Origin: Chloroflexota bacterium
GTDB taxonomy: Bacteria > Chloroflexota > UBA11872 > VXOZ01
Reading direction: 5' to 3'
Length of the DNA: 64,000 bases
Assembly (NCBI GenBank): GCA_963663275.1
Contig: OY760183.1
Coordinates: forward strand, 352,001-416,000
The translations under genes and the position numbers were made by a program. The notes beneath the pieces were generated by a model. The model ran no database searches and was not told the origin of the DNA. It saw only the letters and a program-made list of their open reading frames with translations. Below are positions 10,545 through 46,460 of this stretch, in pieces. Within the stretch, counting starts at the first letter, position 1. Each line of letters starts with the position of its first letter.

Positions 10545-10659
10545 CTGACGGACAGGCCAAGACCACGTTCCGGTCCTGTCCCCTCTCCCTGAGGGAGAGG
10601 CCAGCGCCACGTTCCGGTCTTGTCCCCTCTCCCTGAGGGAGAGGGTTAGGGTGAGGGTT

Positions 10660-10836
10660 CAATGCTGTCGCGTAAACGTAGCGCGGGGGCTTGTCCCCCG
10701 CCTGAACAAGTAAAATGAGAACGAAATCGATTGACCCGACGGCAGACGCAGGTTACGCGCACTTCCCGTGCGAACCCGCGCTACCGGAGCAACGAGTGTA
10801 GTTTTCATTCTCATTGCGCTTAATGCGACACCATTA
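10660..10836. mobile_element. MITE family A (177 bp), IS4-type ends, inserted into a class G repeat
   Basis: TIRs CAATGCTGTCGCGTAAA / TTAATGCGACACCATTA; flanking duplication GGGTGAGGGT; carries REP-A and REP-B. Confidence 0.85.
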
Positions 10837-10905
10837 GGGTGAGGGTGAGACCTCAGCGCGAAGTGCCGCGAAATCAAATAGAAGAAACACGAGGAAACAC
10901 ATACG

Positions 10906-13929: not shown

Positions 13930-14105
13930 TAATGTCGTCACATTAGGCGGAATGAGAATGAAAACTACGCTCGTTTCTCCGGTAGCGCAGGTTCGCACGG
14001 GAAATGCGCGTAACCTGCGTCTTCCGTAGGGTCAAATCATTCCGTTCTCATTTTCTTGTTCCGGCGGGGGACAAGCCCCCGCGCTACGTTAACGCGACAG
14101 CATTG
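13930..14105. mobile_element. MITE family A (176 bp), opposite orientation, within a degenerate REP-A
   Basis: Reverse-complement homolog of 10660-10836; ends TAATGTCGTCACATTA / TTAACGCGACAGCATTG; target duplication eroded. Confidence 0.8.
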
Positions 14106-28753: not shown

Positions 28754-29602
28754 GTGGCGGACATTCGCGTTGGCTATCATACGATCACGTGGGGCATGGA
28801 GGGTTTCGAACAGGCGCTGGACGAGGTTGCCGCGCTGGGCTTTACCGGGTTCGAGACCTTTGCCGCGGTGGTGGACACCTACGGCGACAAGGTCAGCGAA
28901 TTCCAGGACCTCATCGCCCAGCGGGGGTTGCGGCTTGTCACCGTCTACGGCGGCGGCCCCATGAACGAGGCCCACCGCATGGACGAAATGATCGAACGCA
29001 ACGTCGGCTTTGCCAAGTTCCTGCACGCCCACGGCGCGGACCGTCTGGTGCTGGGCGGCGGTTCGCGCGCGCCGGGCGGCCCGACGCCCGACGACCTCCG
29101 TAACCAGGCGCACTGCATGAACGAAATCGGCCGCCGCTGCCTGGACTACGGCGTGCTGGCCTGCTACCACCCCCACTACGCCACCACGGTGGAGACCGAA
29201 GAAGAAATCGCCTTCATGATGGACTACACCGACCCGCGCTACGTCTTCCTCTGCCCGGACACGGCGCACCTGCGCAAAGGCGGCGGCGACGAACTGGCGG
29301 TGGTGCGCGCCTACGCCGAGCGGGTGAAGTACGTCCATCTGAAAGATTGGGACCCCCAGGCGTTTGCCGACTCCCAGGCGGCCCCGGCCCAGGGCGCGGA
29401 CGCCGCCACCGCCATCCTGCCCGACTTCGTGGAACTCGGCAGCGGCGTGGTGCGGGTGAAGGAGTGCGTCCAGGCGCTCCAGGCCAGCGGCTACACCGGC
29501 TGGCTCATGATCGAACTCGACCGCTCCCGCTCCACCCCCCAGGCCAGCGCCGCCACCAACAAAGCCTACGTGGAGCAAGAACTCGGCCTAACAGTAGGTT
29601 AA
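28754..29602 (+). CDS. Sugar phosphate isomerase/epimerase TIM-barrel protein (IolE-like)
   Basis: ITWG, YHPH, PDTAH, YVHLKD, GYTGWLMIE; GTG start after GGGAG. Confidence 0.85.
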   Translation: MADIRVGYHTITWGMEGFEQALDEVAALGFTGFETFAAVVDTYGDKVSEFQDLIAQRGLRLVTVYGGGPMNEAHRMDEMIERNVGFAKFLHAHGADRLVLGGGSRAPGGPTPDDLRNQAHCMNEIGRRCLDYGVLACYHPHYATTVETEEEIAFMMDYTDPRYVFLCPDTAHLRKGGGDELAVVRAYAERVKYVHLKDWDPQAFADSQAAPAQGADAATAILPDFVELGSGVVRVKECVQALQASGYTGWLMIELDRSRSTPQASAATNKAYVEQELGLTVG

Positions 29603-29633
29603 ACCGTTGCACCGTAGCGCGGGGGCTCGTCCC

Positions 29634-30827
29634 CAATGTTGTCGCATTAAAGTGAAGGGGCTACTTTAGTAAGGTAATGAGCGATATATCTTACAAAGGA
29701 GCCTTGGCTAATGGTAGCACAGACGGTAGGAGTAGGACGGCGGCTATGGCGTGAGTTGGAGCCGGCGCTGACGGCGGCAGCACGGGTGAGGGGAGCGGAT
29801 CGCTATCGCAAGCATTTTTCGGTGCGAGCGCATGTGGGGATGCTGCTTGGACACGTGCTGAGTGGGAGTGGGAGCCTGCGGCAAAGCCATGGGCTGCAGA
29901 TGGGTGATGTGGTGTGGCGACGGCGGTTGGGTTTAGCGTCGGGCATAAGTTACAGTCAGTTGGCACGTTCATCCCAGACGCGGCCGTTGGCGTGTTTTAC
30001 GGCGGCGTGGGAGGTGTTGGCGCGGCAGGTGCAAGCACGTGGGCCGGCGCACGTACGGCGGGTGGTGGCGGTGGACGGCAGTTTTCTGGCGCTGAGCGCG
30101 GCGTGTAGTCCGTGGAGCGTGCACCAAGGACATGAGGCGGGAGTACGGCTGCAGATGGCATATGCCGTGGACACACAGGTGCCGACGCGGTTACAGGTGA
30201 CGTTGGCGGACGCGAATGACGTGACGGCGTTCAAGCGTTGGGATCTGGCGCGGTGGCAGGGCTGGACGCTCTTGCTAGACTTGGGCTACTACGCGCATCG
30301 GGTCTTTGCGCAGATGCGGGAGGCAGGTGTGCACTTCGTGACGCGCCTGCACCCGCAGGCTGCCTACTGCGTGGTGCGCGAGCGTGCCGTGACCGGCGCG
30401 CGCACGCCGGCAGGAGACGTGGTGGTGCGGGACGCGGTGATCGTGCTGGGCAGCGCCAACAACCGCAACGGCGCGGTCTTAGCAGAGATGCGCCTGGTGG
30501 TCAGCCGCACGGCGCAGGGGAAAACGCACCACTTCATCACCGACCGTCACGACCTGAGCGCTCCAGAGGTGGTGTGGCTCTACCGCAAACGCTGGCAGAT
30601 CGAGTTGTTCTTTCGCTGGCTGAAGCATGTGTTGGGCGCAATCCGCCCCATTGGATACAGCCGTGCCGCCGTCTGGCTCACCTTGGTGGTCGCCAGCATC
30701 GTGGCCGTGCTCGCACAGCTCTTGGAGGAACTACGTCCAGCTAGCAGCACTCGCGTCTCCTGGCTGCGCACGCTTGCCGCTTCCTTGCCCCGCGCACTCC
30801 GCTTCAGCGGTTAATGCGACAGCATTG
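29634..30827 (+). mobile_element. Complete IS4-family insertion sequence inserted into a REP-A
   Basis: 17-bp TIRs CAATGTTGTCGCATTAA / TTAATGCGACAGCATTG; 11-bp target duplication GGGCTCGTCCC. Confidence 0.93.
29711..30814 (+). CDS. IS4-family DDE transposase
   Basis: AVDGS, LLDLGYY, YRKRWQIELFFRWLK (YREK signature); stop lies in the right TIR. Confidence 0.93.
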   Translation: MVAQTVGVGRRLWRELEPALTAAARVRGADRYRKHFSVRAHVGMLLGHVLSGSGSLRQSHGLQMGDVVWRRRLGLASGISYSQLARSSQTRPLACFTAAWEVLARQVQARGPAHVRRVVAVDGSFLALSAACSPWSVHQGHEAGVRLQMAYAVDTQVPTRLQVTLADANDVTAFKRWDLARWQGWTLLLDLGYYAHRVFAQMREAGVHFVTRLHPQAAYCVVRERAVTGARTPAGDVVVRDAVIVLGSANNRNGAVLAEMRLVVSRTAQGKTHHFITDRHDLSAPEVVWLYRKRWQIELFFRWLKHVLGAIRPIGYSRAAVWLTLVVASIVAVLAQLLEELRPASSTRVSWLRTLAASLPRALRFSG

Positions 30828-30947
30828 GGGCTCGTCCCCCGCCGTCTGGCCGACGCACCGTAGCGCGGGGGCTCGTCCTCCGCCGTCTGGCCGACGCACC
30901 GTAGCGCGGGAGCTCGCCCCCCGCAAGCCTGCAAGAACGGGAACGAC

Positions 30948-31439
30948 ATGGCTACAAAAACCAACACGCATCAACGCTACCACAGGCGCATTCGCCTAGA
31001 CCGCAAGCTCTATGGCCAATTGGGCGCGATATGCTCGGTGACTGCTGGTACGCGAGCACGGCGCGCGATCTTTGCAGACCCAGGCGCGGCGCATGCGGCG
31101 AGGCACGTGTTGCACGCACATGCTCAAAAGACCGGCGTGCCAGTTTACGGCTACTGCCTGATGCCTGATCACGCCCACCTGGTTATCGGACCGTCTCCGA
31201 CTTGCGATATCATAGACTTCACTGGCCAATTTAAGAATGTCGCGCAGCGCGCCGTTTGGAAGCAAGGGGTGACCGGTCGCATCTGGCAAGTGAGTTTTTG
31301 GGACCACTTCTTGCGGAAAGAAGAGAGTCTTGAGGAAGTAGTGCGATACGTACTCAACAACCCAGTTCGAAAAGGAATGGTGCGGAAGTGGCAAGACTAT
31401 CCATTCTCCGGCTCACTGGAGCTGACGTTGGAAGACTAA
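30948..31439 (+). CDS. REP-associated tyrosine transposase (RAYT, Y1/HUH family)
   Basis: MPDHAHL HUH motif, WQ.SFWDH, RYVLNNP catalytic Tyr, W.DYPFS; flanked by inverted REP-A copies. Confidence 0.92.
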   Translation: MATKTNTHQRYHRRIRLDRKLYGQLGAICSVTAGTRARRAIFADPGAAHAARHVLHAHAQKTGVPVYGYCLMPDHAHLVIGPSPTCDIIDFTGQFKNVAQRAVWKQGVTGRIWQVSFWDHFLRKEESLEEVVRYVLNNPVRKGMVRKWQDYPFSGSLELTLED

Positions 31440-31865
31440 GGTAAAATGTGGTTTCCCTGCGGCTAAGAGGCGGGGGACGAGCCCCCGCGCTACGGGTTGG
31501 CCAAGTTGCGAGGGAACAAGCGATTCGTTCTCACACTCACTGGTACTGACGTTGGAAGAGTAGGGTGAAATGTGGTCTCCCTGCGGCTAAGAGGCGGGGG
31601 ACAAGCCCCCGCGCTACGGGTTGGAAGAGATGCAGGGGGACAAACAACTCCTCTCTAAGCTCACTGGATCTGATGTTGCAGGAGCAGGGCGCAATGCCGC
31701 TCCCCAGCCCCTAAGAGGCGGGGGACGAGCCCCCGCGCTACGGGTAGGAAGAGATGCAGGGGGACAAACAACTCCTCTCTAAGCTCACTGGATCAGATGT
31801 TGCAGAAGCAGGGCGCAATGCCATCCCCCAGCCCCAAAGAGGCGGGGGACAAGCCCCCGCGCTAC
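31370..31865 (-). repeat. Four 124-bp units, each ending in an inverted REP-A
   Basis: REPs at 31470, 31594, 31718 and 31842; CTCACTGG at 31412, 31536, 31660 and 31784. Confidence 0.9.
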
Positions 31866-31998
31866 GGGTCGGTCAGGAAGCGAGCGGGTTGGCCAAGAAC
31901 CGTGGAGACAAGCACGCGCGATTAGTGCGACGCTACCAGTGAGCGAGAAGATACTCTATGCTAAGCAAAGCCGGGGACAAACTGAAGGACATTGAACC

Positions 31999-33009
31999 AT
32001 GAAACGTGTTGGCATCATCGGCTGCGGCCAGATTGCCGCCAGAGGGCACCAGAGCGGCTACGGCGAACTAGCGGACCGCATCAGCGTCGCCGCGGTAGCG
32101 GATCCGGCGGCGGAGCGGCGCGGCCTGTTGGGCGACCGGTTTCAGATTCCGGACGCGGCGCGCTACGACGACTATCGCGACCTGCTCGCCCGTGACGACC
32201 TGGACTTCGTGGACATCTGTCTGCCGCACCACCTGCACCATCCGGCCACGCTCGCCGCGGCCGCGGCCGGACACAACATCCTGCTGGAAAAGCCCATCGC
32301 CGCCCGTGAAGACGAGGCGCTGGAGATGATCGCCGCCGTCGAGCAGGCCGGCATCGTCTTCTCGCTGATCCACAACTACTCGCGCCAGCCCGTGCCCGCC
32401 CGCATTCTGGAACTGGTGCACGGCGGCGCCATTGGCTCTCCCTACCTGGTGCGCTACGAAGGCTTTGGCAACTATCACTATTTGGGCACCGCGGCCTACG
32501 ACCCGGCCTGGCGGGCCGAAGCCGGACGCGGCGGCGGCGGCGCGCTGCTGGACAACGGCTACCACAGCATCTACCTGGCGCGCTACGTGATGCAGTCCGA
32601 GGTGCGGGAGGTCTTTGGCGCGGTGGGCACCTTTGCCCGCGACTTCGAGGTGGAAGACACCGCCCTGGCGCTGCTGCGCCACGAAAACGGCGCAATCACC
32701 TCCATCCAAAACGGCTGGGGCGCGGACCGGAGCATGCCGGCCCGCGAAATCCAGGGTTCCACCGGGTCGATTCTGCTCCGGGGCAACGCGGAACGTCCCA
32801 TCGAGCTATGGAACGGCGACCGCTGCGAGTATCCCGCGCCCATGCCCGCCCAGCCCAGCGACTACGCGCAAATCTTCAGCGCCTACTGCGACGCGCTGGA
32901 CGGCGCCGGCCCCGTGCCCACCACCGCCGCCGACGGCCTGATGAACCTGCGCATCATCCTGGCCGCCTACGAAGCCAGCCGCGCGGGCCGCGTGGTGACG
33001 CTCCCGTAG
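31999..33009 (+). CDS. Gfo/Idh/MocA family oxidoreductase
   Basis: GIIGCG, LLEKP, GGGALLDNGYH, VEDTA. Confidence 0.92.
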   Translation: MKRVGIIGCGQIAARGHQSGYGELADRISVAAVADPAAERRGLLGDRFQIPDAARYDDYRDLLARDDLDFVDICLPHHLHHPATLAAAAAGHNILLEKPIAAREDEALEMIAAVEQAGIVFSLIHNYSRQPVPARILELVHGGAIGSPYLVRYEGFGNYHYLGTAAYDPAWRAEAGRGGGGALLDNGYHSIYLARYVMQSEVREVFGAVGTFARDFEVEDTALALLRHENGAITSIQNGWGADRSMPAREIQGSTGSILLRGNAERPIELWNGDRCEYPAPMPAQPSDYAQIFSAYCDALDGAGPVPTTAADGLMNLRIILAAYEASRAGRVVTLP

Positions 33010-33161
33010 TTCATAACCGTCAAATGGAGTTGTGTCGCGCGGCAGCGTGTAGTACACTCACACGTCAAGAGAATTGCACGTTGCTTCTAACATTCCGCTG
33101 CCTCAAACTCGAATCGGACACGAATTCAGCCATTCGTTTGGATATATGAAAGGTCTCCTCT

Positions 33162-33545
33162 ATGAACGCGGAAGAGCAAGTGCAGCAAGAGCAGGAAGAG
33201 CAGGAGCGGGTAGAACCGTCCAGCGACAGGCAGTTGCGCCGGGTAGTGCAGGCCATGGTAGAGGTGAATCCGGAGCTTAGCGAGCGCTATGGGGAAGAGT
33301 TGGCCCGCTCGTTCGTCGAGCGCCTCCACACCGTCATCGACCAGCGTATCGAGGCGAGATTTGGGATGCCGGGAAGCCGCCCGTACTCGCTGCTGCTGCC
33401 CCTCGTTTCGCTCGTGATCGGCCTCTTGGGAATGGCCATTATCGGCGTCACCGGCGGCCCCTTCGTGGGCTTCGGCACGATCCTCTCCCCCTGGATCCCC
33501 ATCGTCGCCATCAACATCATCTACGCAATCCGCACGAGCAACTGA
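33162..33545 (+). CDS. Hypothetical membrane protein (helical N-terminus, 2 TM helices)
   Basis: EL...F.ERL...ID.R.EAR motif shared with 35084-35446. Confidence 0.7.
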   Translation: MNAEEQVQQEQEEQERVEPSSDRQLRRVVQAMVEVNPELSERYGEELARSFVERLHTVIDQRIEARFGMPGSRPYSLLLPLVSLVIGLLGMAIIGVTGGPFVGFGTILSPWIPIVAINIIYAIRTSN

Positions 33546-33582
33546 GGCCGCGCCGCAGTAGCCGCCCCAGCAGGCGACTCAA

Positions 33583-33700
33583 TCCCTCTCCCTGGGCAGA
33601 GCACACGCGCAAAAACTCCCTCTCCCTGGAGAGAGCACACGCGCAAAAACCCCCTCTCCCTGGAGAGAGCACGCGCGCAAAGACCCCCTCTCCCTGGGAG
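33583..33700 (+). repeat. ~33-bp tandem of class G half-repeats preceding the IS481
   Basis: CCCTCTCCCTGG..AGAGCAC.CGCGCAAA repeated 3-4 times. Confidence 0.8.
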
Positions 33701-34966
33701 TGTAGAGCCCGGGGACATAGGTAACACATTTTCAGGGACATAGGTTACACCATAAGGCATGGGAATTCGTCACTAGAGGAGGACGACCATGTCGTGGAAA
33801 GTGAGTACACCTATGTCTGAGCGGGAAGAGTTTATAGCCGTGATGCTGACGGGTGAGGTGAGCATGAGCGCACTGTGCAAGCGTATGGGCATCAGCCGCA
33901 AGACCGGCTACAAGTGGCGCACGCGCTACAGGCAGGGCGGGATGGAGAACCTGGGGGACCGGTCGCGGCGTCCGCACACCAGCCCACAGCGCACGCGTCC
34001 AGAGATGGAGCGGCACATCATCGCCTTGCGCCTGGCACATCCGGGGAAGGGCGCGGACGCGCTGGGCCGGATGCTGCGGAACCGCGGCTACGCCGACGTG
34101 CCCGCCAGGAGCACCATCAACGCCATTCTCAAGCGCCACGGGTTGATCGACCCGGCCGAGAGCGCCAAGCGCATGCCCTTCATTCGCTTTGAGCGCCCGC
34201 TGCCCAACGAACTCTGGCAGATGGACTTCAAGGGGCATTTCGCCATGTCTCGCGACCGCTGCCATCCGCTCACCGTGCTCGACGACCATTCCCGCTACAA
34301 CCTGGCTGTGGAGGCCTGCGCCGACGAGCGGGGTCAGACCGTCCAGGAGCGCCTCACCCGCGTCTTTCGGCGCTACGGCCTGCCTGCGGCCATGCTCATG
34401 GACAACGGCGCCCCCTGGGGCAACGACAGCGCCCATCCCTTCACGCCGCTCACCGTCTGGCTCATGCGCCTGGGCATCAAGGTGCTTCACAGCCGTCCCT
34501 ACCATCCCCAGACCCTCGGCAAGCTGGAACGCTTCCACCGCTCCCTGAAAAGCGAAGTCCTGGCCGGTCGCACCTTCACCAACCTGGAGCACTGCCAGCG
34601 CGCCTTCGACGCTTGGCGGCACTTCTACAACCGGGAACGCCCGCACCACGCCCTCACGCTCAACACGCCCGTCAGCCGGTACACGCCCAGTCCACAGCCC
34701 TTTCCCGAAACGCTGCCCCCCATCACCTACGCTCCCGACGACCAGGTGCGCGCCGTCGACGTCAGCGGCCGCATCTCGTTCCAGGGCAAGACCCTCCGCG
34801 TGGGGCGAGCTTTCGCCCACACCCGCGTCGCCCTGCGACCCACGCAAACCGACGGCGTCTGGAACGTATACTTCGCTGTCAATCCGATAAGAACGGTAGA
34901 CCTCAGTGAACAAAATGTGTAACCTATCTCCCTGAATAACTGTTACCCATGTCCCCGGACTGTACA
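33701..34966 (+). mobile_element. Complete IS481-family insertion sequence inserted into a class G repeat
   Basis: TGT...ACA ends, TIR TGTAGAGCCCGGGGACATAGGTAACA / TGTTACCCATGTCCCCGGACTGTACA, subterminal repeats, GGGAG duplication. Confidence 0.92.
33789..34922 (+). CDS. IS481-family transposase
   Basis: HTH (GISRKTGYKW), WQMDFKG, DDHSR, DNG, GKLERFH integrase-core motifs. Confidence 0.95.
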   Translation: MSWKVSTPMSEREEFIAVMLTGEVSMSALCKRMGISRKTGYKWRTRYRQGGMENLGDRSRRPHTSPQRTRPEMERHIIALRLAHPGKGADALGRMLRNRGYADVPARSTINAILKRHGLIDPAESAKRMPFIRFERPLPNELWQMDFKGHFAMSRDRCHPLTVLDDHSRYNLAVEACADERGQTVQERLTRVFRRYGLPAAMLMDNGAPWGNDSAHPFTPLTVWLMRLGIKVLHSRPYHPQTLGKLERFHRSLKSEVLAGRTFTNLEHCQRAFDAWRHFYNRERPHHALTLNTPVSRYTPSPQPFPETLPPITYAPDDQVRAVDVSGRISFQGKTLRVGRAFAHTRVALRPTQTDGVWNVYFAVNPIRTVDLSEQNV

Positions 34967-35083
34967 GGGAGAGGGCCGGGGTGAGGGGAAAAGCGCGAAG
35001 CCGTCCGCGCCCGGCATCAGGCGCGATTTCGCCCGGGCGCGCGAGTGAACGACACCGGAGCAGACGCGCGGAGGACAAAGCGC

Positions 35084-35446
35084 ATGAGCAGCAACTCGCC
35101 GGAGCAAGACAAGGAAAAACAACGGGAAGCCGACCGCAACCGCGATGAGTTGCACGCCATCCTCTCGGCCCGGCAGGAACTCGGCGCGGAGTACAACGAC
35201 GAACTGGCCGACATGCTCATGGAGCGCCTGGATGCCGTAATCGACCGCCGGGTGGAAGCGCGCCTGCAGAACGTCTCCAAGAGTTCTCTCTCGCCGGCCG
35301 TGCCGATTTGCTCGTTTATCTTTGCCATTCCGCTGACCGCGATCGCGGCCACTTTGGTCGGACCCGTGGGCGTGGCTATCGTCTGGGTCGCATTGATAGT
35401 AGTCAACATCCTCTACTCCGGCAAGAAGATCAGCGACATCTTCTAG
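35084..35446 (+). CDS. Hypothetical membrane protein, paralog of 33162-33545
   Basis: ARQELGAEYNDELAD..MERLDAVIDRRVEARL plus 2 TM helices; GGAGGA RBS before ATG 35084. Confidence 0.72.
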   Translation: MSSNSPEQDKEKQREADRNRDELHAILSARQELGAEYNDELADMLMERLDAVIDRRVEARLQNVSKSSLSPAVPICSFIFAIPLTAIAATLVGPVGVAIVWVALIVVNILYSGKKISDIF

Positions 35447-35507
35447 CAGGTCCCGGTAGCACTTCCCGGCATGTTTGTGACACCATCTGGATGGAGGACA
35501 AGAAGAG

Positions 35508-35744
35508 ATGGAGAACTACGAGTTCTGGGCCACCATCGCCACCGTCGTGCTGGCCGCGATCGCGGTTGCCGCGTTTGTTACACACGGGCAGAATAACCTG
35601 CGCAACGAACTCCGCTCAGAAATACGCGAACTAACTACACGCGTTTCCAGTCTTGAGCAGCGCGTAGCCCGCCTGGAAGGGTTGTTCGAGGACATACGCG
35701 CGCTCTTCCGGCGCGGGGAAGCGACCAAAGAAGAACATTCGTGA
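35508..35744 (+). CDS. Small protein with an N-terminal TM helix and coiled coil
   Basis: GGAGGA RBS; hydrophobic N-terminus; LRNELRSEIREL..RVSSLEQRVARLEG heptads. Confidence 0.7.
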   Translation: MENYEFWATIATVVLAAIAVAAFVTHGQNNLRNELRSEIRELTTRVSSLEQRVARLEGLFEDIRALFRRGEATKEEHS

Positions 35745-35755
35745 ATCGCCCCTGC

Positions 35756-35851
35756 GAACGGCTATACGCCACCTTGCGCGGTTCTTTTCACCCTTCGACG
35801 CGGCTCAGGGCGAACGTCCCTCGTGCAGACTAGAAGATTGTAAACAGGCTC
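35756..35851. mobile_element. Truncated MITE family C
   Basis: Reverse complement of about the first 96 bp of 23779-23951; ends GTAAACAGGCTC-TAA. Confidence 0.75.
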
Positions 35852-36807
35852 TAAGACACGGTTGAGTCCGTTATCCGTACCGCGTAATGGAAGACCTCGT
35901 TGAGGAATGCAATCCATTCCGCGCCGTCATGGGCCAAGTCGTCCAGCAAGAATACCTTGACAACGCCCATGTCATCGAGCCTGGCTTTCATTTCCGGTGT
36001 AACGACGCCCGCGACCAGGAAGTTAACGCAATTCGGCGGCGTCGCTTCAAAGCTCTTCTGCATCGCGCCCAGACGTTCGAGCGCGCCGGCCGGGTCTTTG
36101 CCCCCCTTTATCTCAATCGTTGCGACCAGCCTCTCATCACCCCCGGTGTCTTGTCGAAACAGGATGTCCGGCTCGGAGCCAAAGCGCATCCGGTAGCCAT
36201 TTGGCAACCGGAACTCCGTTTCTTCTTCATCCTGAGCCAACACCAACCGCCGGCTTTCCAGCCAGTTCCTGATCCGAGTCTTTACCAGGTTTTCGGCGTC
36301 GCGGCCGATAATGTTGCGAAACGTCCCATCCAGCCCTATGCCCATGTTGGCGATGATGTTCCGATAGCCGTTCTCTAGGCTCCAATTCGTCGTGCCCTCG
36401 ATAATTGAGGAAATCACGGCATTGTAGAGCCGGGCTACGCGCAGGCTCTGCTCGTCTCCGATGGGCGCTTTGCGCGAGCCGTCTTCCCAAGAGGACACGG
36501 GCACGGCAATGTCCGCCACCCGCTTCTGCGGCAGCAACGCTATCCCACGGTAGTATTGCGAGGTTCGAGGATGTTCTCGGAGAAGCAGGGGATGGGCGAA
36601 CACCAGCTTGGGATCTATACCGGAAACCGCAACGCACTCCCACGCCTGCTCGCTGATCATCAGTTCGTCCAATGGCCCGAAATCCAGCTCTCCCCTGAAA
36701 CTCTCGATCAACGTTCTCAGGTCTTGATCCGTCCGTTGCCGGATTCGCTCCGCCATCAGCGTTGACCTGAGCCGCGCGTCGTCCAGGCCGTTCACGTCCG
36801 CACCCAC
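35851..36807 (-). CDS. Type II restriction endonuclease, PD-(D/E)xK fold, XcyI-like
   Basis: SEPDILF...IEIKGGKD, VFAHP..L, YYRG, G.FRN.IG; overlaps the end of the methyltransferase gene. Confidence 0.75.
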   Translation of the reverse strand: MGADVNGLDDARLRSTLMAERIRQRTDQDLRTLIESFRGELDFGPLDELMISEQAWECVAVSGIDPKLVFAHPLLLREHPRTSQYYRGIALLPQKRVADIAVPVSSWEDGSRKAPIGDEQSLRVARLYNAVISSIIEGTTNWSLENGYRNIIANMGIGLDGTFRNIIGRDAENLVKTRIRNWLESRRLVLAQDEEETEFRLPNGYRMRFGSEPDILFRQDTGGDERLVATIEIKGGKDPAGALERLGAMQKSFEATPPNCVNFLVAGVVTPEMKARLDDMGVVKVFLLDDLAHDGAEWIAFLNEVFHYAVRITDSTVS

Positions 36808-38183
36808 CTATAGACGCATTTTCTGATCTCGCGCCTCCCAAAGCGGCCCATTTGCTGGCTGGAGTTGCCCTTGCCCCGGGGCAGCATCCAGATATTCTCG
36901 CAGACGAATCCCGACTGCTCCGCAAAGTCGGACAGGATAAGGTCTACCGGCGCTTCTTCGCCGTGGTACTGGACGTTGTCGTTCACCATGATTACGGCGC
37001 CGCCCGGGCGGATTACCCGGCCCAACTCCGCGACAACGAGCGCCATCTCCTGAAAGTACCCTTCCAGCAGCCTGATCACGTGCCTGTTGCTCAACTCGCT
37101 TACGTGCTCTTCGAGTATCCCGAGCACCTCGTGGATGGCTGCCTGATTCCGGTACATTGCCAGCGCGCCATCCAGCAGGCCGGGATTCCCACTGTATACC
37201 TGGCGCAGCCACGAGAGTTTCGACTTGCTCTCCACGGTTGCGGACAACATCCGCTGCCGCAGGTCGCTGAAGCCTTTCTGATCGAAGCCAAGCCAGGCGA
37301 GTTCCAGCGCGTACGTGCGCGTGTAGTCATATCTGTTGGCGTAGGGAGGCGAGGTCAGCGCCATGTCGAACTGCGCGTCCTCCAACGCTTGCATCGAGTC
37401 CAGACACGACCCGGTGATCAACCTCGGACTGCCGCCTCCGTACTCTTGCTTGAGTATCTCTATGTCCTGGGACATCTCGAACAACCGCGCTCCCAGCGCC
37501 TGCTCGAACGAGAGAATAGGCCCCTTGTGCACCTTCGCCCTCAGGTTTCGACCGGACCGGTAGTCCCAGCGCAGGTACTGGCCGTCCTTGCGCGTATAGC
37601 TCACGTCTTCGAGGACTGTCATGCATGCCACGTTCAGCAGCGTTTGCAGCACACGATCATCAATGGAAGCAATGAACTGCCGGGCCTTGGCAATGGCAAT
37701 CTCCGTCGTCTCCGGAAAGGCCGCCTGCGTGATGGCGACGTGGGGGAACGCAAATCCCGCGGGCGCCGGTTCATCGGACGAGATTCTGCCAATCAGTTCG
37801 CTGCCCACGGCTTCGAGTTCCGTCTTGGCTACCCCGTTAGCGGCATGGGCGATCGCATTGCCTACCAACACGCCAACGGGCATTATCTCGATCCCCGTCG
37901 CCGCGCTCCCCTTGCTCGCGGCAATCAATGGCGTGGTGCCGATGCCGGCGAAGGGATCGAGCACGGCCGCCGGTTGGTGTTCGTCGATGAACCGCTCCAC
38001 GAGACCGCTGGAAAAGCCCTCCTTGTACTTCATCCACCGCAGACCGGGAACCTGACGGTTTCCCTGATAGGAAACTGCTTTGCGGCTGAAGCCGGCGTTG
38101 ACGGATATGCGATCCCCGAAGCGATCGTTAAGCGCCTGGCGGCCCGCAACGCTGCCTCCATTGGGAGAAATCAGCGGCTCCAT
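36792..38183 (-). CDS. DNA amino-methyltransferase, likely N4-cytosine
   Basis: Motif I VLDPFAGIGTT precedes motif IV TSPPY; AGGAG RBS. Confidence 0.88.
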   Translation of the reverse strand: MEPLISPNGGSVAGRQALNDRFGDRISVNAGFSRKAVSYQGNRQVPGLRWMKYKEGFSSGLVERFIDEHQPAAVLDPFAGIGTTPLIAASKGSAATGIEIMPVGVLVGNAIAHAANGVAKTELEAVGSELIGRISSDEPAPAGFAFPHVAITQAAFPETTEIAIAKARQFIASIDDRVLQTLLNVACMTVLEDVSYTRKDGQYLRWDYRSGRNLRAKVHKGPILSFEQALGARLFEMSQDIEILKQEYGGGSPRLITGSCLDSMQALEDAQFDMALTSPPYANRYDYTRTYALELAWLGFDQKGFSDLRQRMLSATVESKSKLSWLRQVYSGNPGLLDGALAMYRNQAAIHEVLGILEEHVSELSNRHVIRLLEGYFQEMALVVAELGRVIRPGGAVIMVNDNVQYHGEEAPVDLILSDFAEQSGFVCENIWMLPRGKGNSSQQMGRFGRREIRKCVYRWVRT

Positions 38184-38402
38184 CTATGTGGACTCCTGTC
38201 AATGGTGGGACTATGTCCGTTTACTGCTAGGCGTGTGGACGCGGCCGTAGTTCTCTATGACAGTATACGCGAGAGCCGCGCCGCCATCCCGTAGCGCGGG
38301 GGCTTGTCCCCCGCCTCTTTGGGGGGGACTGACGCCTTGGGCCGCGGCGGAACGCGGGAATCCGCGCCGCCGTTGCCCATCGCCGCAACCGGGGTTGGGC
38401 CG

Positions 38403-40028
38403 TTATCTTTGCCCGTCGCTGATGCCGCTGATGCGGGTGTTGATGGTATGCCAGCCGGAAGCGCCGTTGGGGGCCGGCGCAAGTTTCGTTTCGTCCTGGA
38501 GTTCGCCGTCGCCGTCGGTAGCGCGCACCCGGATCGTGTAGCCGGCCGCCACCGGCGGTTCCCACGTAGTCTTCCATTGCACCCACGAAAACGGGGCCAG
38601 CGCCTTGCCGAGTTGCGCCACCTGCCAGTTATCGCCCTCGTCGATGCTGACCTCCACCTTGCTGATGCCGCGACTGCCCGCAAAGGCAATGCCGCCAATC
38701 AAGACCTCCCGTTCCACCTTGGCGCTCACCGTAGCGCCGTCGCGGGGCGCGTCGATGCGGGACATGGTTTTGATGATGGCCTCGTCGCTCCAGCCGCGCT
38801 GTTGCCAGAAGCCCTTGAAATCGTGGTCCACCGGCTCGATGCGCGTCAGCCACTTCACGTTCTTCATACCGTAGATATTCGGCACCACGAGGCGCACCGG
38901 GAAGCCGTGGTTGTTGGGCAAAGTCGCGCCGTTCATGCGGAACGCCGCGATCACGTTTGGATCCTGCGCCTTCTCCAGCGGGATACTCTCCTGGTAGCCG
39001 TCCGCCGCGTGCAGCACGATGTCTTTCACGCCCGGCTGGATGCCGGCCTGTTGCAGCAGGTCCCACAGCGGCACGCCTTCCCAGAACGCGTTGCCGATCA
39101 GATCGCCGCCGACCTCGTTGCTGATGCACTGGAGCGTGCAGTACTGCTGCTGGGTGGGCATGGCCGTAAACGTCTCGTAATCCAGCGTCATCCGGTTATC
39201 CACCATGCCGGTGATGGTCAGGTTCCAGTCGTTTACGTCAACCGTGGGGTCGATCATGTTCTTGGAGATGACGTAGAACTCATCGTTGGGGGTCACCAGC
39301 GGCTCCAGGCCCTCGAAGCCTTGCTGGAAGATGGGAGTTTCCTCGCCGCTGGGAGAGGTGGTGGTAGTTATCACCGGCTCGGCCAACGTCGCCTGGGACT
39401 GCGCGCCCAGCGCGCGGTTCAGCGCGTACGCCCCGCCCACGGCCAGGCCGGACGCCGCCAACGGCGCCAGCGAGCGGCGGGAGAGCATGTTCTCAGAGCC
39501 GGTGGCCAGCGCCTCGGCCGTGAACGGCTGCCGCACGAACGCCAGCGTCAGGCCGAACGCCAGGAAAGCGATCACGTCGGTGGCCGCGGCGGCGTACGCC
39601 GGCGCGGAGGCGTCCAGGCCAAAGAACCCGCGCAACACGAACGGCGACATAGTCACCGCGTACACCAGCCACAGCGCCAGGCCGTAGCCAAGGCCGTAAA
39701 GCAGCGTCGCAGACGTGCGTTCGCTGCCGCCGCCGTCGGGGCTGAGCCGGGCGAGGAGCCGCCCGTAGAGCAGCCCCAGGAGGCCGCCCGCGCCCACGAT
39801 GGCGATGAGTATGGCATAGAAGTTGAGCTTCTTGGCCAGCGTGCCCAGCACCTGCACCACCGCCTCGAAGAGCGCCGGCGGCACGAAACTCAGGATGCGT
39901 TCCGCCACCGCCTCCGGCAAGGCGGGAACCTGCCAGATGAAACGCGCCACGAAGTATATCGCCAGAAAGACCGCGGCGGCAATCGCGCCGGACAGAAACT
40001 CTCTGCGCCAGGATGCGGTCGAGTCCAT
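38403..40028 (-). CDS. Membrane-bound molybdopterin oxidoreductase, sulfite-oxidase family
   Basis: TPNDEFY, TLQCISN Mo-ligating Cys, HGFPVRLVVP.IYGMKNVKW, GFWQQRGW, dimerisation domain; about 5 N-terminal TM helices. Confidence 0.9.
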   Translation of the reverse strand: MDSTASWRREFLSGAIAAAVFLAIYFVARFIWQVPALPEAVAERILSFVPPALFEAVVQVLGTLAKKLNFYAILIAIVGAGGLLGLLYGRLLARLSPDGGGSERTSATLLYGLGYGLALWLVYAVTMSPFVLRGFFGLDASAPAYAAAATDVIAFLAFGLTLAFVRQPFTAEALATGSENMLSRRSLAPLAASGLAVGGAYALNRALGAQSQATLAEPVITTTTSPSGEETPIFQQGFEGLEPLVTPNDEFYVISKNMIDPTVDVNDWNLTITGMVDNRMTLDYETFTAMPTQQQYCTLQCISNEVGGDLIGNAFWEGVPLWDLLQQAGIQPGVKDIVLHAADGYQESIPLEKAQDPNVIAAFRMNGATLPNNHGFPVRLVVPNIYGMKNVKWLTRIEPVDHDFKGFWQQRGWSDEAIIKTMSRIDAPRDGATVSAKVEREVLIGGIAFAGSRGISKVEVSIDEGDNWQVAQLGKALAPFSWVQWKTTWEPPVAAGYTIRVRATDGDGELQDETKLAPAPNGASGWHTINTRISGISDGQR

Positions 40029-40302
40029 AGGTACCTTCCCCCATTGCTATGGTATGATGACTTGACTTCATCGTATCACAGAGATATTGGATAAGTATCC
40101 TCTCCACCTAAGAACTTCCTGAGAGAAGTTTGCCCCAAAACGTCCCAGGCAGTAGAGTCTGTGGGTAGCGAAACTTTAGCGAAGAGCGTAGACTGGTTAG
40201 CCATAGGTAGAGTATGCTCATTGCCGAAGCAACCCTCGCCATTTGCAGCAGCATCGTATGCGCGGCGCAAGCAGCGCCTTGCAGGACGGAGGTAACCGCA
40301 TT

Positions 40303-41736
40303 ATGAACGAAAAGACTATCCAATCCGGCCGCTCGCGGCGCAGTGTGCTCCGCAGCATGGGCGCGCTTGGCCTGGGCGCGGCCGCCGCCGCGCTCGGTTC
40401 GGCGTGCAGCGGCCTCAACCGCCGCCGGTGCGACGGCCCGTGCGTCCCCACGCCCACGCCCATCATCCCGATCACGCCGACGCCGGTGCAGGGGCCCATA
40501 CCCATCATTCGCCGGCCCGGCCTCGTCACCTTCTGGACCTGGGCCGCCGGGCCCACCCGGCAGTGGCTCACGGACGTCCACGACCTGTTCGCCGCCCGCA
40601 CGGGCAACACGCTGGAACCGGTCTTCCTGGGCAGCCAGCGCGCGGTGGAAAGCAGGCTGGCGCAGGCCACGGCCGCGGGCGACGGCGCGCCGGACGCCGT
40701 GCACGTGCCCATGGGCGCGCTGCCGCGCTGGGCGGAAGCCTCGCTGGTGCAAGACCTCACGCCCAACCTGAACTGGCCGCGCACGGTGAACCTGGCGCAG
40801 TTCGCGAAGGGCGTCCTGCCCTACGCTTCCGTGGACGAAAAGACCTACGCGATTCCCTACGACGACCCGCAGGCCATCGGGCTGGCGCTCAACGCCAAGC
40901 ACATGGATGAAGCGGGCGTTACCGTGGACGTGGAAGCCTTCAAGCAATGGGGCTGGGATAACCTGCGGGAAACCGCCCAGGCCCTCACCCAACGGCAGGG
41001 TGACCGCATCCAGCGCCCGGGCATGCACGTCAGTTCGAACTGGCTCCAGGTCCTCACCTGGCTCTACAGCAACGACACCGGCTTCTTCCAGAATAACGCC
41101 GACGGCGGCAACGTGGTGGTGAATAACCCGGACGCCCAGGCTACGCTCCAGTTCCTGGCCGACATGGTGACCGAGGATAAGGTGAGCGGCGAGCCGTCGC
41201 CCTACGTGGACTCCGCCAGCGTCTTCGTGCGCGGCGGCGCCTCCATGGCGGTGGTGAACGCCGACGCGATCAACCACGCCGTGCGCGTGCACTCGGAGCA
41301 ACAAGCCGCCACGCCGGAACTGCCATTCCACTGGCTGCCCCTGCCCACAGGGCCCAGCGGCAGCGCGCCCGCCACCCAGGTCTGGTCGCACCAGATCGCC
41401 ATTCCGGCCGCGGCCGGCAATCCAACCTCCGGCTGGGACCTGCTCACGTTCCTCTATACGCGGGAAACGCTGCAAGACTACCTGGGCAGCACCGGCATGA
41501 CGCTGCCGTTCAAGCCGCAATGGAAGTATCCCATGGCGAAGCTGGTGACCACTTTCACCCCTACCTACATGGAGTACCTGGACCTGCTGGACCAGGAAAG
41601 CCCCTCGCCGGTGCTGGGCCGCGACGCCTTGGCCCGCAACCTGGCCCAACCGCTGCGCCAAGCCATCTCCGGCGAACGACCGGTGGCGGACATGATGCCG
41701 GAAATCGAACGCGCCGTGCGCACCGCAGTCTCCTAG
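40303..41736 (+). CDS. ABC transporter solute-binding lipoprotein (family 1), Tat signal
   Basis: SRRSVL, GSAC lipobox, TYAIPYD, WGWDNL, LPTGPSG; GGAGGT RBS. Confidence 0.82.
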   Translation: MNEKTIQSGRSRRSVLRSMGALGLGAAAAALGSACSGLNRRRCDGPCVPTPTPIIPITPTPVQGPIPIIRRPGLVTFWTWAAGPTRQWLTDVHDLFAARTGNTLEPVFLGSQRAVESRLAQATAAGDGAPDAVHVPMGALPRWAEASLVQDLTPNLNWPRTVNLAQFAKGVLPYASVDEKTYAIPYDDPQAIGLALNAKHMDEAGVTVDVEAFKQWGWDNLRETAQALTQRQGDRIQRPGMHVSSNWLQVLTWLYSNDTGFFQNNADGGNVVVNNPDAQATLQFLADMVTEDKVSGEPSPYVDSASVFVRGGASMAVVNADAINHAVRVHSEQQAATPELPFHWLPLPTGPSGSAPATQVWSHQIAIPAAAGNPTSGWDLLTFLYTRETLQDYLGSTGMTLPFKPQWKYPMAKLVTTFTPTYMEYLDLLDQESPSPVLGRDALARNLAQPLRQAISGERPVADMMPEIERAVRTAVS

Positions 41737-41780
41737 AGCATACCAGCGGCCCGACACACCCGCCCCGCCGGACAAGCGCC

Positions 41781-41950
41781 CCGGTAGCGCAGGTTTGTAA
41801 CCTGCGTATTCGCCTAGGTAGCGTAGGTTTCCAACCTGCGCCCGCCTCTTCATGCACTCCGGAAGCGCAGGTTTCCAACCTGCGCCCGCCTCTTCATGCG
41901 CTCCGGTAGCGCAGGTTTGTAACCTGCGTCTTCACTCCGGTAGCGCAGCT
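41781..41950 (+). repeat. REP-B tandem cluster
   Basis: Four to five copies of GGTAGCG(C/T)AGGTTT..AACCTGCG with duplicated spacers. Confidence 0.85.
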
Positions 41951-41986
41951 TTCACTCCTATCGGCCGTAGCGCGGGGGCTTGTCCC

Positions 41987-42148
41987 CAATACTGTCGCAT
42001 TAACGTAGCGCGGGGGCTTGTCCCCCGCCGGAATAAGAGAAATGCTAACGAAATGGATTGACCCTACGGAAGACGCAGGTTACAAACCTGCGCTACCGGA
42101 GAAACGAGCGTTGTTTTCACTCTCATTGTGTTTAATGCGACAGCATTG
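41987..42148. mobile_element. MITE family A (162 bp) inserted into the centre of a REP-A
   Basis: TIRs CAATACTGTCGCATTAA / TTAATGCGACAGCATTG (right end identical to the IS4); perfect 11-bp duplication GGGCTTGTCCC. Confidence 0.92.
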
Positions 42149-42408
42149 GGGCTTGTCCCCCGCCTCTTGGCGCACGCTCCCCCGTAGGGGCAACCCTTGT
42201 GGTTGCCCTCTTGTTTGCGCTTGCCCTCCTGCTTATGGTTCCCCCATGCCGTTCTACCTACGGCGCCCTTCTCGGATCCCGGGTTGCGCGTGCCCGCACT
42301 CCAGGCCACAAACATGGCCGCCCTGCCTTCCTGGGCGACCACCAGGGTCGCCCCTACCGCCTAGCCCACACGGCCCCAGGCAAGGCGCACAGTTGCGATA
42401 AACTTAAC

Positions 42409-45729: not shown

Positions 45730-46460
45730 GTAGCGCGGGGGTTTGTCCCCCGCCGGGGCACTCCGCACCGCAAACCAGGACGCAGGTTACAAACCTGCCC
45801 TACCGGACCGGGGACATTCCCTATTGGTGTCGCTCTTACGTAGCGCGAGGGCTTGTCCCCCGCCGGGACACTCTACACCGCAAACCAGGACGCAGGTTAC
45901 AAACCTGCGCTACCGGACTGGGGGCGATCCCTAATTGGTGTCACATCAATGTAGCGCGGCGGCTCGTCAACGCGGTGTAGGGGCACGACATGTCGTGCCC
46001 CTACACCGCGTTGACGACAGGTCAAACATATTAACAGCGCGGTTTCGCCGTGGTTGCCTAAGTCAGAAGTTAATGCAACAGCATTGGGGCTTGTCCCCCG
46101 CCTGGGTTCTCCGCACCGCAAACCAGGACGCAGGTTACAAACCTGCGCTACCGGAGCGGGGACATTCCCTTTTGCCGTCACATCAACGTAGCGCGGGGGC
46201 TCGTCAACGCGGTGTAGGGGCACGACATGTCGTGCCCCTACACCGCGTTGACGACAGGTCAAGCATATTAACAGCGCGGGTTCGCCGTGTTTGCCTAAGT
46301 CAGAAGTTAATGCAACAGCATTGGGGCTTGTCCCCCGCCCGGCGCTCCACACCGCAAACCAGGACGCAGGTTACAATCCTGCGCTACCGGAGCGAAGACG
46401 CGGGTTGCTATCCTGCGCTACCGGAGCGAAGACGCGGGTTGCTATCCTGCGCTACCGGCG
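45730..46460. repeat. Nested repeat block: REP-A/REP-B pairs, a 237-bp tandem duplication with IS4-type ends, and two perfect 54-bp palindromes
   Basis: TTAATGCAACAGCATTG-GGGCTTGTCCC at 46070 and 46307; palindromes at 45964-46017 and 46201-46254; 34-bp tandem at 46377-46458. Confidence 0.85.

Follow-up and report, generated by a model that had tools for sequence, protein, structure and literature searches.

The RAYT locus of a Chloroflexota bacterium, at which a REP is split by an insertion sequence, raises the question of whether REPs are also exploited, and possibly spread, by a DDE transposase. REPs rank among the most abundant repeats of bacteria, and it is usually RAYTs (REP-associated tyrosine transposases) alone that are held responsible for their turnover. 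A sequence-only reading of the 64,000-nucleotide stretch containing this locus (hereafter the window) had suggested that RAYT and REP, an IS4-type element and a MITE form a three-part system in which every MITE insertion disrupts one REP and delivers a fresh one. All three players are indeed present in the window (Table 1; positions are those of the window unless marked as genome positions).

The repeat in question, REP-A, is a GTAG-headed hairpin (GTAGC GCGGGGG CTTGT CCCCCGC) with a 7-bp stem, a 5-nt loop and a predicted energy of -14.9 kcal/mol. The genome contains 362 exact copies, and 567 copies at three or fewer mismatches. Only one locus of the genome exceeds the RAYT cutoff. Its product scores 95.9 bits against NF047646 (cutoff 80) and has E=4e-11 against Y1_Tnp, and REP-A is the cognate REP of this single RAYT. 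The REP-A arrays on both sides of the gene exemplify the free copies, that is, those with no adjoining TIR (466 of 567), which mostly form tandem arrays of the same orientation with periods of 30-60 nt. We examined the locus in nine relatives; in two of them the RAYT anchor was missing from the fetched stretch. In all seven with both anchors aligned, the upstream gene, the direct REP-A array and the RAYT gene follow in the same order; the RAYT is inherited vertically at a fixed locus across the genus. In the same seven relatives the REP-A array is uninterrupted and the IS is absent; thus the IS insertion at the RAYT locus is the derived state, and the comparison of empty and filled sites that had been proposed shows an empty orthologous site for the IS.

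Table 1. Features of the REP-A, RAYT, IS and MITE system in the window
Feature	Position	Strand	Details
Candidate IS4-family insertion sequence, 1,194 bp	29634..30827	+	TIRs 29634-29650 and 30811-30827
Head half of the split REP-A	29614..29633	+	final 11 nt (29623-29633) are the left duplication GGGCTCGTCCC
Right duplication and tail of the split REP-A	30828..30842	+	duplication 30828-30838
Transposase ORF, 367 aa	29711..30814	+	Pfam DDE_Tnp_1, NCBIfam transpos_IS4_1
Two direct REP-A copies upstream of RAYT	30860..30924	+	30860-30883, 30901-30924
RAYT, 163 aa	30948..31439	+	NF047646, Y1_Tnp
Three inverted REP-A copies downstream of RAYT	31470..31741	-	31470-31493, 31594-31617, 31718-31741
MITE-1, 162 bp (41987-42148), with duplications	41976..42159	+	TIR-L 41987-42003, TIR-R 42132-42148
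Cargo of the 41987 MITE			REP-A 42005-42028; inverted REP-B 42073-42095
MITE-1 variant, 177 bp (10660-10836)	10649..10847	+	cargo: REP-A, long REP-B variant
MITE-1 variant, 176 bp, inverted	13930..14105	-	right TIR with 1 mismatch
MITE-2, left-truncated, tandemly duplicated	45950..46323	+	237-bp period; right TIRs 46070-46086, 46307-46323

The insertion sequence has 17-bp TIRs identical at 16 positions and is flanked on both sides by a perfect 11-bp target-site duplication, GGGCTCGTCCC, as had been read from the sequence. Once the flanks are rejoined, the split hairpin reads GTAGCGCGGGGGCTCGTCCCCCGC. The transposase matches DDE_Tnp_1 (PF01609; E=7e-23, 81.8 bits, cutoff 23) and transpos_IS4_1 (NF033592; 156.9 bits, cutoff 115). 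IS4-family transposases have, following their third catalytic residue, the signature Y-(2)-R-(3)-E-(6)-K, which was read in the ORF translation as YRKRWQIELFFRWLK. The profile score, the signature, the TIRs and the fixed-length duplication all fit, and the element probably belongs to the IS4 family. Four copies, with 3-8 differences over 1,194 positions, are present in the genome, all of them inside REP-A, which is broken at the same point with a perfect 11-bp duplication. The IS interior contains no REP-A. Contigs from four public runs (X1, X2, X5, X6) were compared with positions 28500-43500, and none of the 15 joints listed (there are 150 more) skips the IS or the MITE at 41987; the contigs break at repeats. 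Record 17 of X5, possibly the sample from which this genome came, bridges 28721-30843 and represents the filled IS site, and record 1 of X1 spans 29622-30830 with seven differences.

The 162-bp element at 41987 was also read correctly: its right TIR is identical to that of the IS, and it occupies the same position in another REP-A, where the perfect duplication GGGCTTGTCCC spans 41976-41986 and 42149-42159. Eight copies in the genome, including this one, are 100% identical; together with the four near-identical IS copies they suggest recent activity of both the IS and the MITEs. The two further copies that had been listed are both real, but neither is a clean insertion into REP-A. The one at 10660 sits at a secondary target with the duplication GGGTGAGGGT(T/G), adjoining a different hairpin. 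The one at 13930 has a degenerate left TIR (12 of 17 positions by eye, outside the list of TIRs with at most three mismatches), and its flanks are decayed REP-A-like halves with no clean duplication. Two more TIRs, absent from the earlier list, were observed at 46070 and 46307; these are the right TIRs of MITE-2, and both adjoin REP-A tail halves. The window contains nine TIRs with at most three mismatches against 0.12 expected, and none of 100 shuffles reached nine, which excludes chance. A scan of positions 9000-47000 against Rfam at gathering thresholds found no RNA families in the MITEs, the only matches being two tRNAs.

Genome-wide, 193 TIR ends were tabulated, and 60 elements had both ends paired, four IS copies and 56 others. 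The enrichment of REP-A among the targets holds at this scale: 42 of the 60 paired elements lie inside REP-A, 40 of them at the identical offset +9, and a REP-A half adjoins 117 of the 193 ends (62 head halves and 55 tail halves). Perfect 11-bp duplications flank 35 of the 60; among the 162-bp copies, 29 of 32 are in REP-A and 28 of 32 have a perfect duplication. The 56 non-IS elements are non-coding, 162-193 bp long, and have TIRs within three mismatches of the IS TIR. With common TIRs, the 11-bp duplication and the offset +9, they appear to be MITEs partnered with the IS. All four IS copies break the REP at one point, and 40 of the 60 paired elements share the identical offset, which fits the REP-targeting, type 1 association of Tobes & Pareja 2006. 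The orientation of the elements relative to the REP is unbiased (20 same and 14 opposite among elements with cargo). The 18 paired elements with no recognisable REP-A are a mixture, some old or decayed, some at the secondary target GGGTGAGGG, and one in another hairpin. The shared ends, duplication length and target suggest that the IS transposase mobilises the MITEs in trans. The insertion sites may be intergenic "safe havens".

The exact 11-mer occurs outside REP-A in only 20 of 520 cases, and thus recognition of the sequence and recognition of the hairpin are inseparable in this genome. IS relatives with 37-57% identity retain the TIR core and occupy palindromes other than REP-A. Perfect 11-bp duplications flank L071, which sits in another GTAG hairpin, and L073, whereas that of L076 is 10 bp long (by eye); L070 and L069 are located in hairpins, and L075 lies between palindrome arms. 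The same TIR core in different palindromes points towards recognition of geometry.

In MITE-1, the TIRs surround a doublet of REP-A and inverted REP-B separated by about 44 nt, plus a second spacer, so that an intact REP-A sits one base inside one TIR. This was observed in 47 of the 56 paired non-IS elements, and all 32 copies of 162 bp have REP-A at the same position. Therefore the statement that each MITE carries REP-A is true of most copies; a second family, MITE-2, has the same TIRs and no REP-A. As two MITE-2 copies (genome 2092928 and 1297267) have perfect duplications in REP-A, the cargo is dispensable for mobility. MITE-1 has about 100 copies versus four of the IS, and the 17-bp TIRs are all that the two have in common.

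The carried REP-A is itself a target. Another TIR directly follows seven of the 62 head-half ends, three of the 55 tail-half ends run on into the MITE-1 interior, and the IS copy at genome 3018017 has a nested junction on either side, being a full IS within a MITE-borne REP-A. Hits on the carried REP-A result in nested insertions and TIR arrays with a 38-bp period. MITE-borne copies make up 101 of the 567 REP-As, and by eye their use is roughly proportional to their abundance (11% versus 18%). Hence, for MITE-1, the suggestion that an insertion disrupts one target and delivers a fresh one holds, and the fresh one is hit again. However, the REP-A lost in an on-target insertion is made good by the one brought to that very locus, and the net change is zero. 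Off-target insertions alone seed new REP-A loci; those at 10660, genome 1928525 and genome 2729029, for example, brought REP-A and REP-B to new loci. Only eight of the 466 free REP-As resemble a decayed MITE interior, and with 101 of 567 copies MITE-borne, the proposed spread of REPs through a DDE transposase was overstated.

The doublet may have existed before the MITE. The tail-to-tail arrangement is the commonest one of REP-A and REP-B among free REP-As (126 of 475), with a peak of spacing at 30-49 nt (53 of 126) against 44 nt in the MITE, and in 14 TIR-less doublets homology ends sharply at the REP heads. The first spacer of most free doublets is weakly similar to that of the MITE (mean 0.43). 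Compared with the definition of a REPIN, the two REPs of the free doublets differ, and there are several spacer families. A tree of MITE interiors and free doublets was constructed from 99 alignment columns, after three split rows had been dropped and identical rows collapsed from 97 to 80; 39 of its 77 inner branches are unresolved, and the labels of TIR status cluster (none of 500 shuffles was as low). It is plausible that the MITE interior derives from the capture of a REP doublet.

The same junction is found in other species. In a second species, G011, the TIRs, the 11-bp duplication and the insertion point at the REP-A dyad recur, and all 21 paired MITEs carry REP-A, invariably separated from the TIR by one base. 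G003, G009, G012 and G015 contain other MITE variants of 179-326 bp with the same TIR and REP-A junction and the same REP-A targets, and in G012 all three contig starts examined fall inside such an element. In total, at least seven species have MITE families, of differing structure, in which a single base separates REP-A from a TIR. REP-A was found in all 17 genomes of the genus and the IS protein in only one of 16 relatives. No genome but this one has an intact IS; in many same-genus genomes with MITE variants, some of them fragmented assemblies, the transposase was undetected with the IS query. REP-A counts are 478 and 464 in the two genomes that contain the IS or remnants of it and 59-205 in the 15 others. 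The intergenic region of the MITE at 41987 is too variable between species for its sites to count as strictly orthologous; an uninterrupted REP-A was observed there only in G011, and one of the nine loci compared gave no anchors.

Taken as a whole, these observations are best explained by an IS4-family transposase that cuts at the REP-A dyad and moves REP-A-renewing MITEs in trans; we give this reading a probability of roughly 0.75. The transposase would make 11-bp-staggered cuts symmetric about the dyad. It, or its close relatives, would act in trans on the non-autonomous MITEs with the same TIRs, which would land at the same point as the IS with the same 11-bp duplication. An insertion of MITE-1 would destroy one REP-A and deposit an intact one about 20 bp away. 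The replaced copy would keep constant the target pool and any host role of the REP, and would permit nesting, which may be the selective advantage of the cargo. MITE-1 would do so with no noticeable spread of REP-A, most copies being RAYT-type arrays and doublets. The conserved boundaries of the MITEs are the IS TIRs, and their duplications equal those of the IS in length and position. Elements of the IS200/IS605 type, which transpose as single strands by HUH chemistry, are not known to generate target duplications. Thus, although the outward-facing GTAG-headed REPs inside the MITE are REPIN-like, it is barely conceivable that the RAYT, with its HUH/Y1 chemistry, moves the MITEs instead.

One could also regard the MITE as a major vehicle of REP-A multiplication to new loci, making the DDE transposase, next to the RAYT, a second driver of REP spread. 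The MITE-borne fraction, the off-target insertions and the two highest REP-A counts (478 and 464) agree with this, but the two genomes concerned are related, and more targets could equally permit more IS and MITE copies. Moreover, on-target insertions leave both the number and the loci of REP-A unchanged, the free copies rarely resemble MITE interiors, and their arrays are unlike MITE products. As REP-A is also present throughout the genus and the IS protein in a single relative, this seems quite improbable. Somewhat less improbable, yet still unlikely, is that the cargo REP-A is a part required for MITE mobility, a site of transposase binding or synapsis, with nesting as a side effect. The junction recurs in different MITE families, and MITE-1, identical to the IS only in the TIRs, may need another handle. 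An alignment of 38 distinct copies, drawn from two species, has mean column identities of 99.5% in REP-A, 96% in REP-B, 91-92% in the TIRs and 73% in the spacers, so REP-A is better conserved than the TIRs. On the other hand, this conservation could reflect homogenisation with the genomic REP pool, as REP-B is also well conserved, and both MITE-2 and the IS interior lack REP-A. The same identities, with REPs much closer to the genomic consensus than the spacers are, and the abundance of free doublets of the same layout would also be expected if REPs had entered pre-existing MITEs via the RAYT or gene conversion, possibly repeatedly. However, the constant position of REP-A in the 162-bp copies and in G011 fits one ancestral event per family better, and a single ancestral invasion is indistinguishable from doublet capture; entry of this kind is also quite improbable.

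The preferred reading, cleavage at the dyad with renewal of REP-A by the MITE, can be extended more tentatively. MITE-1 could be a chimera of both kinds of bacterial non-autonomous element, a RAYT-type REP doublet within DDE-type TIRs, that succeeds by repairing the REP-A it breaks; and its transposase could belong to a clade that reads the geometry of palindromes instead of a fixed sequence. The three parts together are possible rather than probable. If they are true, MITE-1 insertions would be close to neutral for the host, targets would never run short and nests could grow without limit; recognition of geometry would explain the relatives with the same TIR core in different hairpins.

REP-targeting ISs, including one of the IS4 family, have already been published. 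According to the available text of Tobes & Pareja 2006 (PMC1525189), all copies of ISRm22 of Sinorhizobium meliloti, also an IS4-family element, are in REPs, at the palindrome axis and with direct repeats, as here. The direct repeat is 6 bp rather than 11 bp, the host belongs to another phylum, the REP has another sequence, and that text names no MITE partner (the word MITE has zero occurrences). Other REP-specific elements, IS1397 and ISKpn1 of the IS3 family and IS621, ISPpu9, ISPpu10 and ISPa11 of the IS110 family, are likewise described as highly specific for a single point in a REP or BIME (PMC3184786, PMC1525189, PMC12288879), but have other transposase chemistry, and TIRs are absent from the IS110 group. 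ISPpu9 contains, in its own A box, a palindrome resembling the REP target, and is accompanied by a MITE-like partner, MITEPpu9 (eight copies); in the available parts of these papers, however, MITEPpu9 carries an sRNA gene where an intact REP might have been expected by analogy, and no insertions nested in carried REPs are described. The small non-coding MITE Nezha has the TIRs and duplication length of ISNpu3 and outnumbers it (Delihas 2011, PMC3184786), whereas REP targeting or carriage of its own target is not reported in the sections available. The REPIN/RAYT systems, as presented in the accessible portions of Bertels & Rainey 2011 (PMC3116915), Nunvar 2010 (PMC2817692) and Di Nocera 2013 (PMC3733652), also comprise hundreds of GTAG-headed REPs, a single vertically inherited RAYT flanked by its REPs, and common inverted doublets with a short spacer. 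In contrast, the doublet considered here joins different REPs, A and B, and in the MITE is enclosed by DDE-type TIRs and an 11-bp duplication. A MITE carrying its REP target or nesting into it was not found in the literature searched, partly available in full and covering few subscription journals.

The elements described here would thus constitute a second transposition system, unrelated to the RAYT, that lives wholly within the REP population, the IS consuming REPs and the MITE replacing the consumed REP. Such a system may serve as a natural case of the choice of a "safe haven" by mobile elements and of a non-autonomous element that spares its targets, and as one in which to ask what an IS4-type transpososome recognises, the sequence of a palindrome or its hairpin or cruciform form. 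Elements of this kind break short-read assemblies and should be labelled IS or MITE instead of being left as anonymous repeats.

The genome containing the window is a single contig of 3.53 Mb with a G+C content of 64%. For the ORF of the IS element, Pfam gives DDE_Tnp_1 at E 7e-23, and the curated IS4-family model of NCBIfam scores 156.9 bits (cutoff 115); the ORF also contains YRKRWQIELFFRWLK, which fits the Y-(2)-R-(3)-E-(6)-K signature of the IS4 family. Perfect 11-bp duplications GGGCTCGTCCC flank the element, and removal of the IS with one duplication copy rejoins GTAGCGCGGGGGCTCGTCCCCCGC. This is REP-A, the GTAG-headed hairpin repeat (7-bp stem, 5-nt loop, predicted -14.9 kcal/mol) cognate to the REP-associated tyrosine transposase (RAYT). 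The sequence-only reading was thus correct in that the IS splits a REP-A, and also in that a 162-bp MITE (family MITE-1) shares the IS TIR and splits another REP-A identically. The interior of this MITE contains an intact REP-A one base inside the left TIR and, deeper in, an inverted copy of REP-B, the second REP. Two further copies noted in that reading, at 10660 and 13930, are real, but the former is inserted into a secondary motif and the latter has a degenerate left TIR. The genome holds four IS copies differing at 3-8 positions and eight identical MITEs, the window copy counted; this near-identity indicates recent activity.

Coordinates and properties of the elements, their targets and the loci of IS relatives (positions in the window unless marked as genome)
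Feature	Position	Size or duplication	Details
IS	29634-30827	1,194 bp	17-bp TIRs, 16/17 positions matching; one 367-aa ORF
RAYT	30948-31439		next ORF after the IS, starting 121 nt downstream of it; NF047646, 95.9 bits (cutoff 80)
MITE-1	41987-42148	162 bp; perfect duplication GGGCTTGTCCC	IS TIRs; same REP-A position as the IS
MITE-2, window	45950-46323	237-bp period	left-truncated tandem duplicate; each right TIR adjoins a REP-A tail half
MITE-2, genome copies	149746, 173427, 189488, 495503, 1297267, 2092928
Secondary target	10560-10860
Insertion into another hairpin	genome 2729029		one of 18 exceptions
L071		perfect 11 bp, CGGGCTTGCCC	another GTAG hairpin
L073		perfect 11 bp	GGGAGAGGG/GGGTGAGGG motif
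L076		10 bp (manual reading)	GGGAGAGGG/GGGTGAGGG motif, as L073
L070		10 bp, 1 mismatch	hairpin
L069		11 bp, 3 mismatches	GTAG hairpin
L075		not resolved	between arms of GTAG palindrome
L072		perfect 9 bp	no clear palindrome
L068		unclear	unclear
L074			truncated copy

Nine TIRs were observed in the window against 0.12 expected, and 193 in the genome at up to three mismatches. Pairing of left and right ends yielded 63 elements (32 of 162 bp, 21 of 170-193 bp, six of odd lengths and four of 1,194 bp), reduced to 60 by dropping three pairs that enclosed another left end. The reconstructed empty site is within three mismatches of REP-A in 42 of the 60, with identical offset in 40 of these. All four IS copies and 29 of the 32 162-bp copies are in REP-A, and 28 of the 32 have a perfect duplication; among the 60 elements, the 11-bp duplication is perfect in 35 and has no more than one mismatch in 39. 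Orientation relative to the REP is unbiased. Without pairing, a REP-A half adjoins 117 of the 193 ends (up to two mismatches in 15 nt). REP-A has 362 exact copies and 567 at up to three mismatches, and the chance expectation for the exact position is about 2 in 10,000 genomic positions. The genome-wide search with tabulated flanks that had been proposed thus confirms insertion into REPs.

Of the 18 elements outside recognisable REP-A, some are old and have decayed flanks, others are insertions into the secondary target, and one is an insertion into another hairpin. The secondary target, GGGTGAGGG(G/T) adjoining a CCCTCTCCC...GGGAGAGGG hairpin repeat, was found at the 10660 copy and at genome position 1928525; insertions at genome 256771 and 689013 are similar. 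The motif is also used by IS relatives with 37-49% identity in other genomes (L073, L076) and by a MITE of a same-genus relative, G012 (L055).

An intact REP-A next to one TIR, ascribed to each MITE by the sequence-only reading, is present in 47 of the 56 paired non-IS elements but not in all. The second family, MITE-2, has about six full copies of 170-175 bp with IS TIRs and no REP-A; its core is a central palindrome with a GTAG head on both strands, similar to the palindrome hosting a distant IS relative (L075). Seven of 62 REP-A head-half ends run directly into another TIR, three of 55 tail-half ends continue into the MITE-1 interior, and the IS at genome 3018017-3019210 lies within a MITE-borne REP-A, nested on both sides. 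By these junctions, the REP-A inside the MITEs does function as a target. Same-orientation nesting explains the TIR arrays of 38-bp period (17 nt of TIR and 21 nt of half REP). MITE-borne copies make up 101 of the 567 REP-As and, as a rough comparison, receive hits in proportion to their number (11% of hits on 18% of sites).

The REP-A-to-REP-B region of the window MITE has 97 BLAST copies in the genome, of which 55 have both TIRs, 18 a single one and 24 neither. Among these 24, three start at query 26-27, at least two of them being halves split by nesting. In 14 TIR-less copies the identity to the MITE is 0.99 in REP-A and 0.94 in REP-B, 0.43 in spacer 1, and 0.22-0.33 in both TIRs and spacer 2; thus the similarity ends sharply at the REP heads. 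Clear homology in spacer 1 is limited to a few of the TIR-less copies, e.g. genome 1064467-1064559 (91%) and 2296651-2296749 (87%). The former, the closest TIR-less doublet, is about 110 bp from an IS copy (1063162-1064355), possibly by coincidence. Among 475 free REP-As, 126 are followed by a tail-to-tail inverted REP-B, most often at a distance of 30-49 nt (53 cases), 31 by one in the same direction and 63 by one head-to-head; the spacing in the MITE is 44 nt. A tree, although poorly resolved, shows the interiors with TIRs as a shallow radiation, and the doublets without TIRs branch more deeply. This undirected comparison suggests that MITE-1 consists of IS4 TIRs around the standard REP doublet of the genome. 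REP-B itself (GTAGCGCAGGTTTGTAACCTGCG and loop variants) has about 200-360 copies at 2-3 mismatches and forms its own arrays (window 41780-41960, 13830-13860); the 177-bp MITE subfamily carries a long variant, in which the hairpin is extended.

A second species, G011, has 21 paired MITEs in 20 fetched loci, all carrying REP-A. Nine are in recognisable REP-A, with perfect duplications in seven and at most one mismatch in 12; nested-end arrays are present, and both IS remnants adjoin REP-A halves. Over 38 distinct MITE-1 sequences from the two genomes, mean column identity is 99.5% in REP-A, 96% in REP-B, 91-92% in TIRs and 73% in spacers; the REP-A filter removed no copy, and the TIR value, being ascertained, can only be inflated. 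Ten loci from five other relatives (G003, G006, G009, G012, G015) were selected by a TIR plus REP-A match, so that the junction is present by construction. Complete MITE-like elements of 179-326 bp, differing in their interiors from MITE-1, are present at five of the ten; at seven, one end or both lie in a REP-A half, and at one, from G015, the duplication GGGCTTGTCCC is perfect.

The transposase was found in one of the 16 same-genus relatives (G011), as frameshifted remnants with 77-79% identity, and not in 24 genomes from other genera of the class. However, all three short-read contigs of G012 examined (C1, C14, C33; L056, L057, L058) start inside a MITE-like element. Such repeats therefore interrupt the assembly, and failure to find the IS in fragmented genomes carries little weight.

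RAYT/REP, IS4 and MITE do occur together in the window, as had been stated. The RAYT is the sole genomic locus above the model cutoff, with direct REP-As upstream and three inverted ones downstream. The first REP-A of this array is the IS landing site, and transposase and RAYT are co-oriented; the IS might change RAYT expression. Two Y1-transposase-like loci, at genome 192639-193226 (minus) and 681959-682408 (plus), match the RAYT model below the cutoff (22.6-40.8 bits), each in two pieces; they could be further genes of RAYT or IS200 type, serving the other REP families. The order of upstream gene, REP-A array and RAYT is syntenic across the genus. Nine orthologous loci were examined to see whether the IS insertion is derived; the RAYT anchor was missing from the fetched stretch in two, and in all seven with both anchors aligned the array is unbroken and the IS absent, the insertion in the window being the derived state. 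The repeat-rich spacer holding the 41987 MITE is too variable for strict orthology. Just downstream of it are two minus-strand tRNA genes (42466-42556 and 42746-42828; Rfam RF00005, 55 and 55.9 bits), the second overlapping stretches of about 85 nt that are 97-100% identical genus-wide.

The suggestion that REPs spread through a DDE transposase is supported in part, as regards REP targeting and target carriage, but the MITE spreads REPs only marginally. An on-target insertion splits one REP-A and brings another about 20 bp away, leaving count and locus unchanged and adding one REP-B. No TIR adjoins 466 of the 567 REP-As, and only eight of these resemble the MITE interior. Free REP-As form mainly same-orientation arrays with 30-60-nt periods, like those beside RAYT in every species. 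REP-A is present in all 17 genomes of the genus; at up to one mismatch, the genome under study has 478 copies and G011 464, against 59-205 in the other 15. No other genome of the genus has the IS or remnants of it, but these two are related, and the MITE-borne REP-As are too small a share to explain the excess. It is at least as likely that causation is reversed, more REP-A targets having led to more IS and MITE insertions.

A genome-contig scan yielded IS relatives at 12 loci, in Chloroflexota-titled records save one from Rubrobacteraceae. Near-complete ones have 37-57% identity, except one with 80%, and retain the TIR core CAAYGNTGTCGCA, while the host palindromes differ in sequence. Palindrome-centre insertion with a duplication of about 11 bp is thus a trait of the clade, the palindrome itself being variable. 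This variability suggests that symmetry or structure is what is recognised. In the present genome almost all occurrences of the 11-mer belong to REP-A (440 in intact REP-A, 60 duplication copies, 20 others), so sequence and structure recognition are inseparable there.

MITEs whose TIRs and duplication length match those of an IS are a textbook phenomenon. REPs are well documented as specific targets of the IS3, IS110, IS4, IS256 and IS5 families (PMC1525189, PMC3184786, PMC3733652). ISRm22, likewise of the IS4 family, is described as inserting at the palindrome axis, but with 6-bp repeats (PMC1525189) rather than the 11 bp observed here. For ISPpu9 (IS110 family), a partner resembling a MITE is described, as is a palindrome similar to a REP within the end of the IS itself (PMC12288879). 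Neither a MITE carrying its intact target REP with nested reuse nor one built around a RAYT-type doublet was found in a full-text search, which most subscription journals lie outside; this is a lead rather than proof of novelty. The system offers a clean, testable case of the interplay of HUH and DDE systems and of target choice at palindrome centres.
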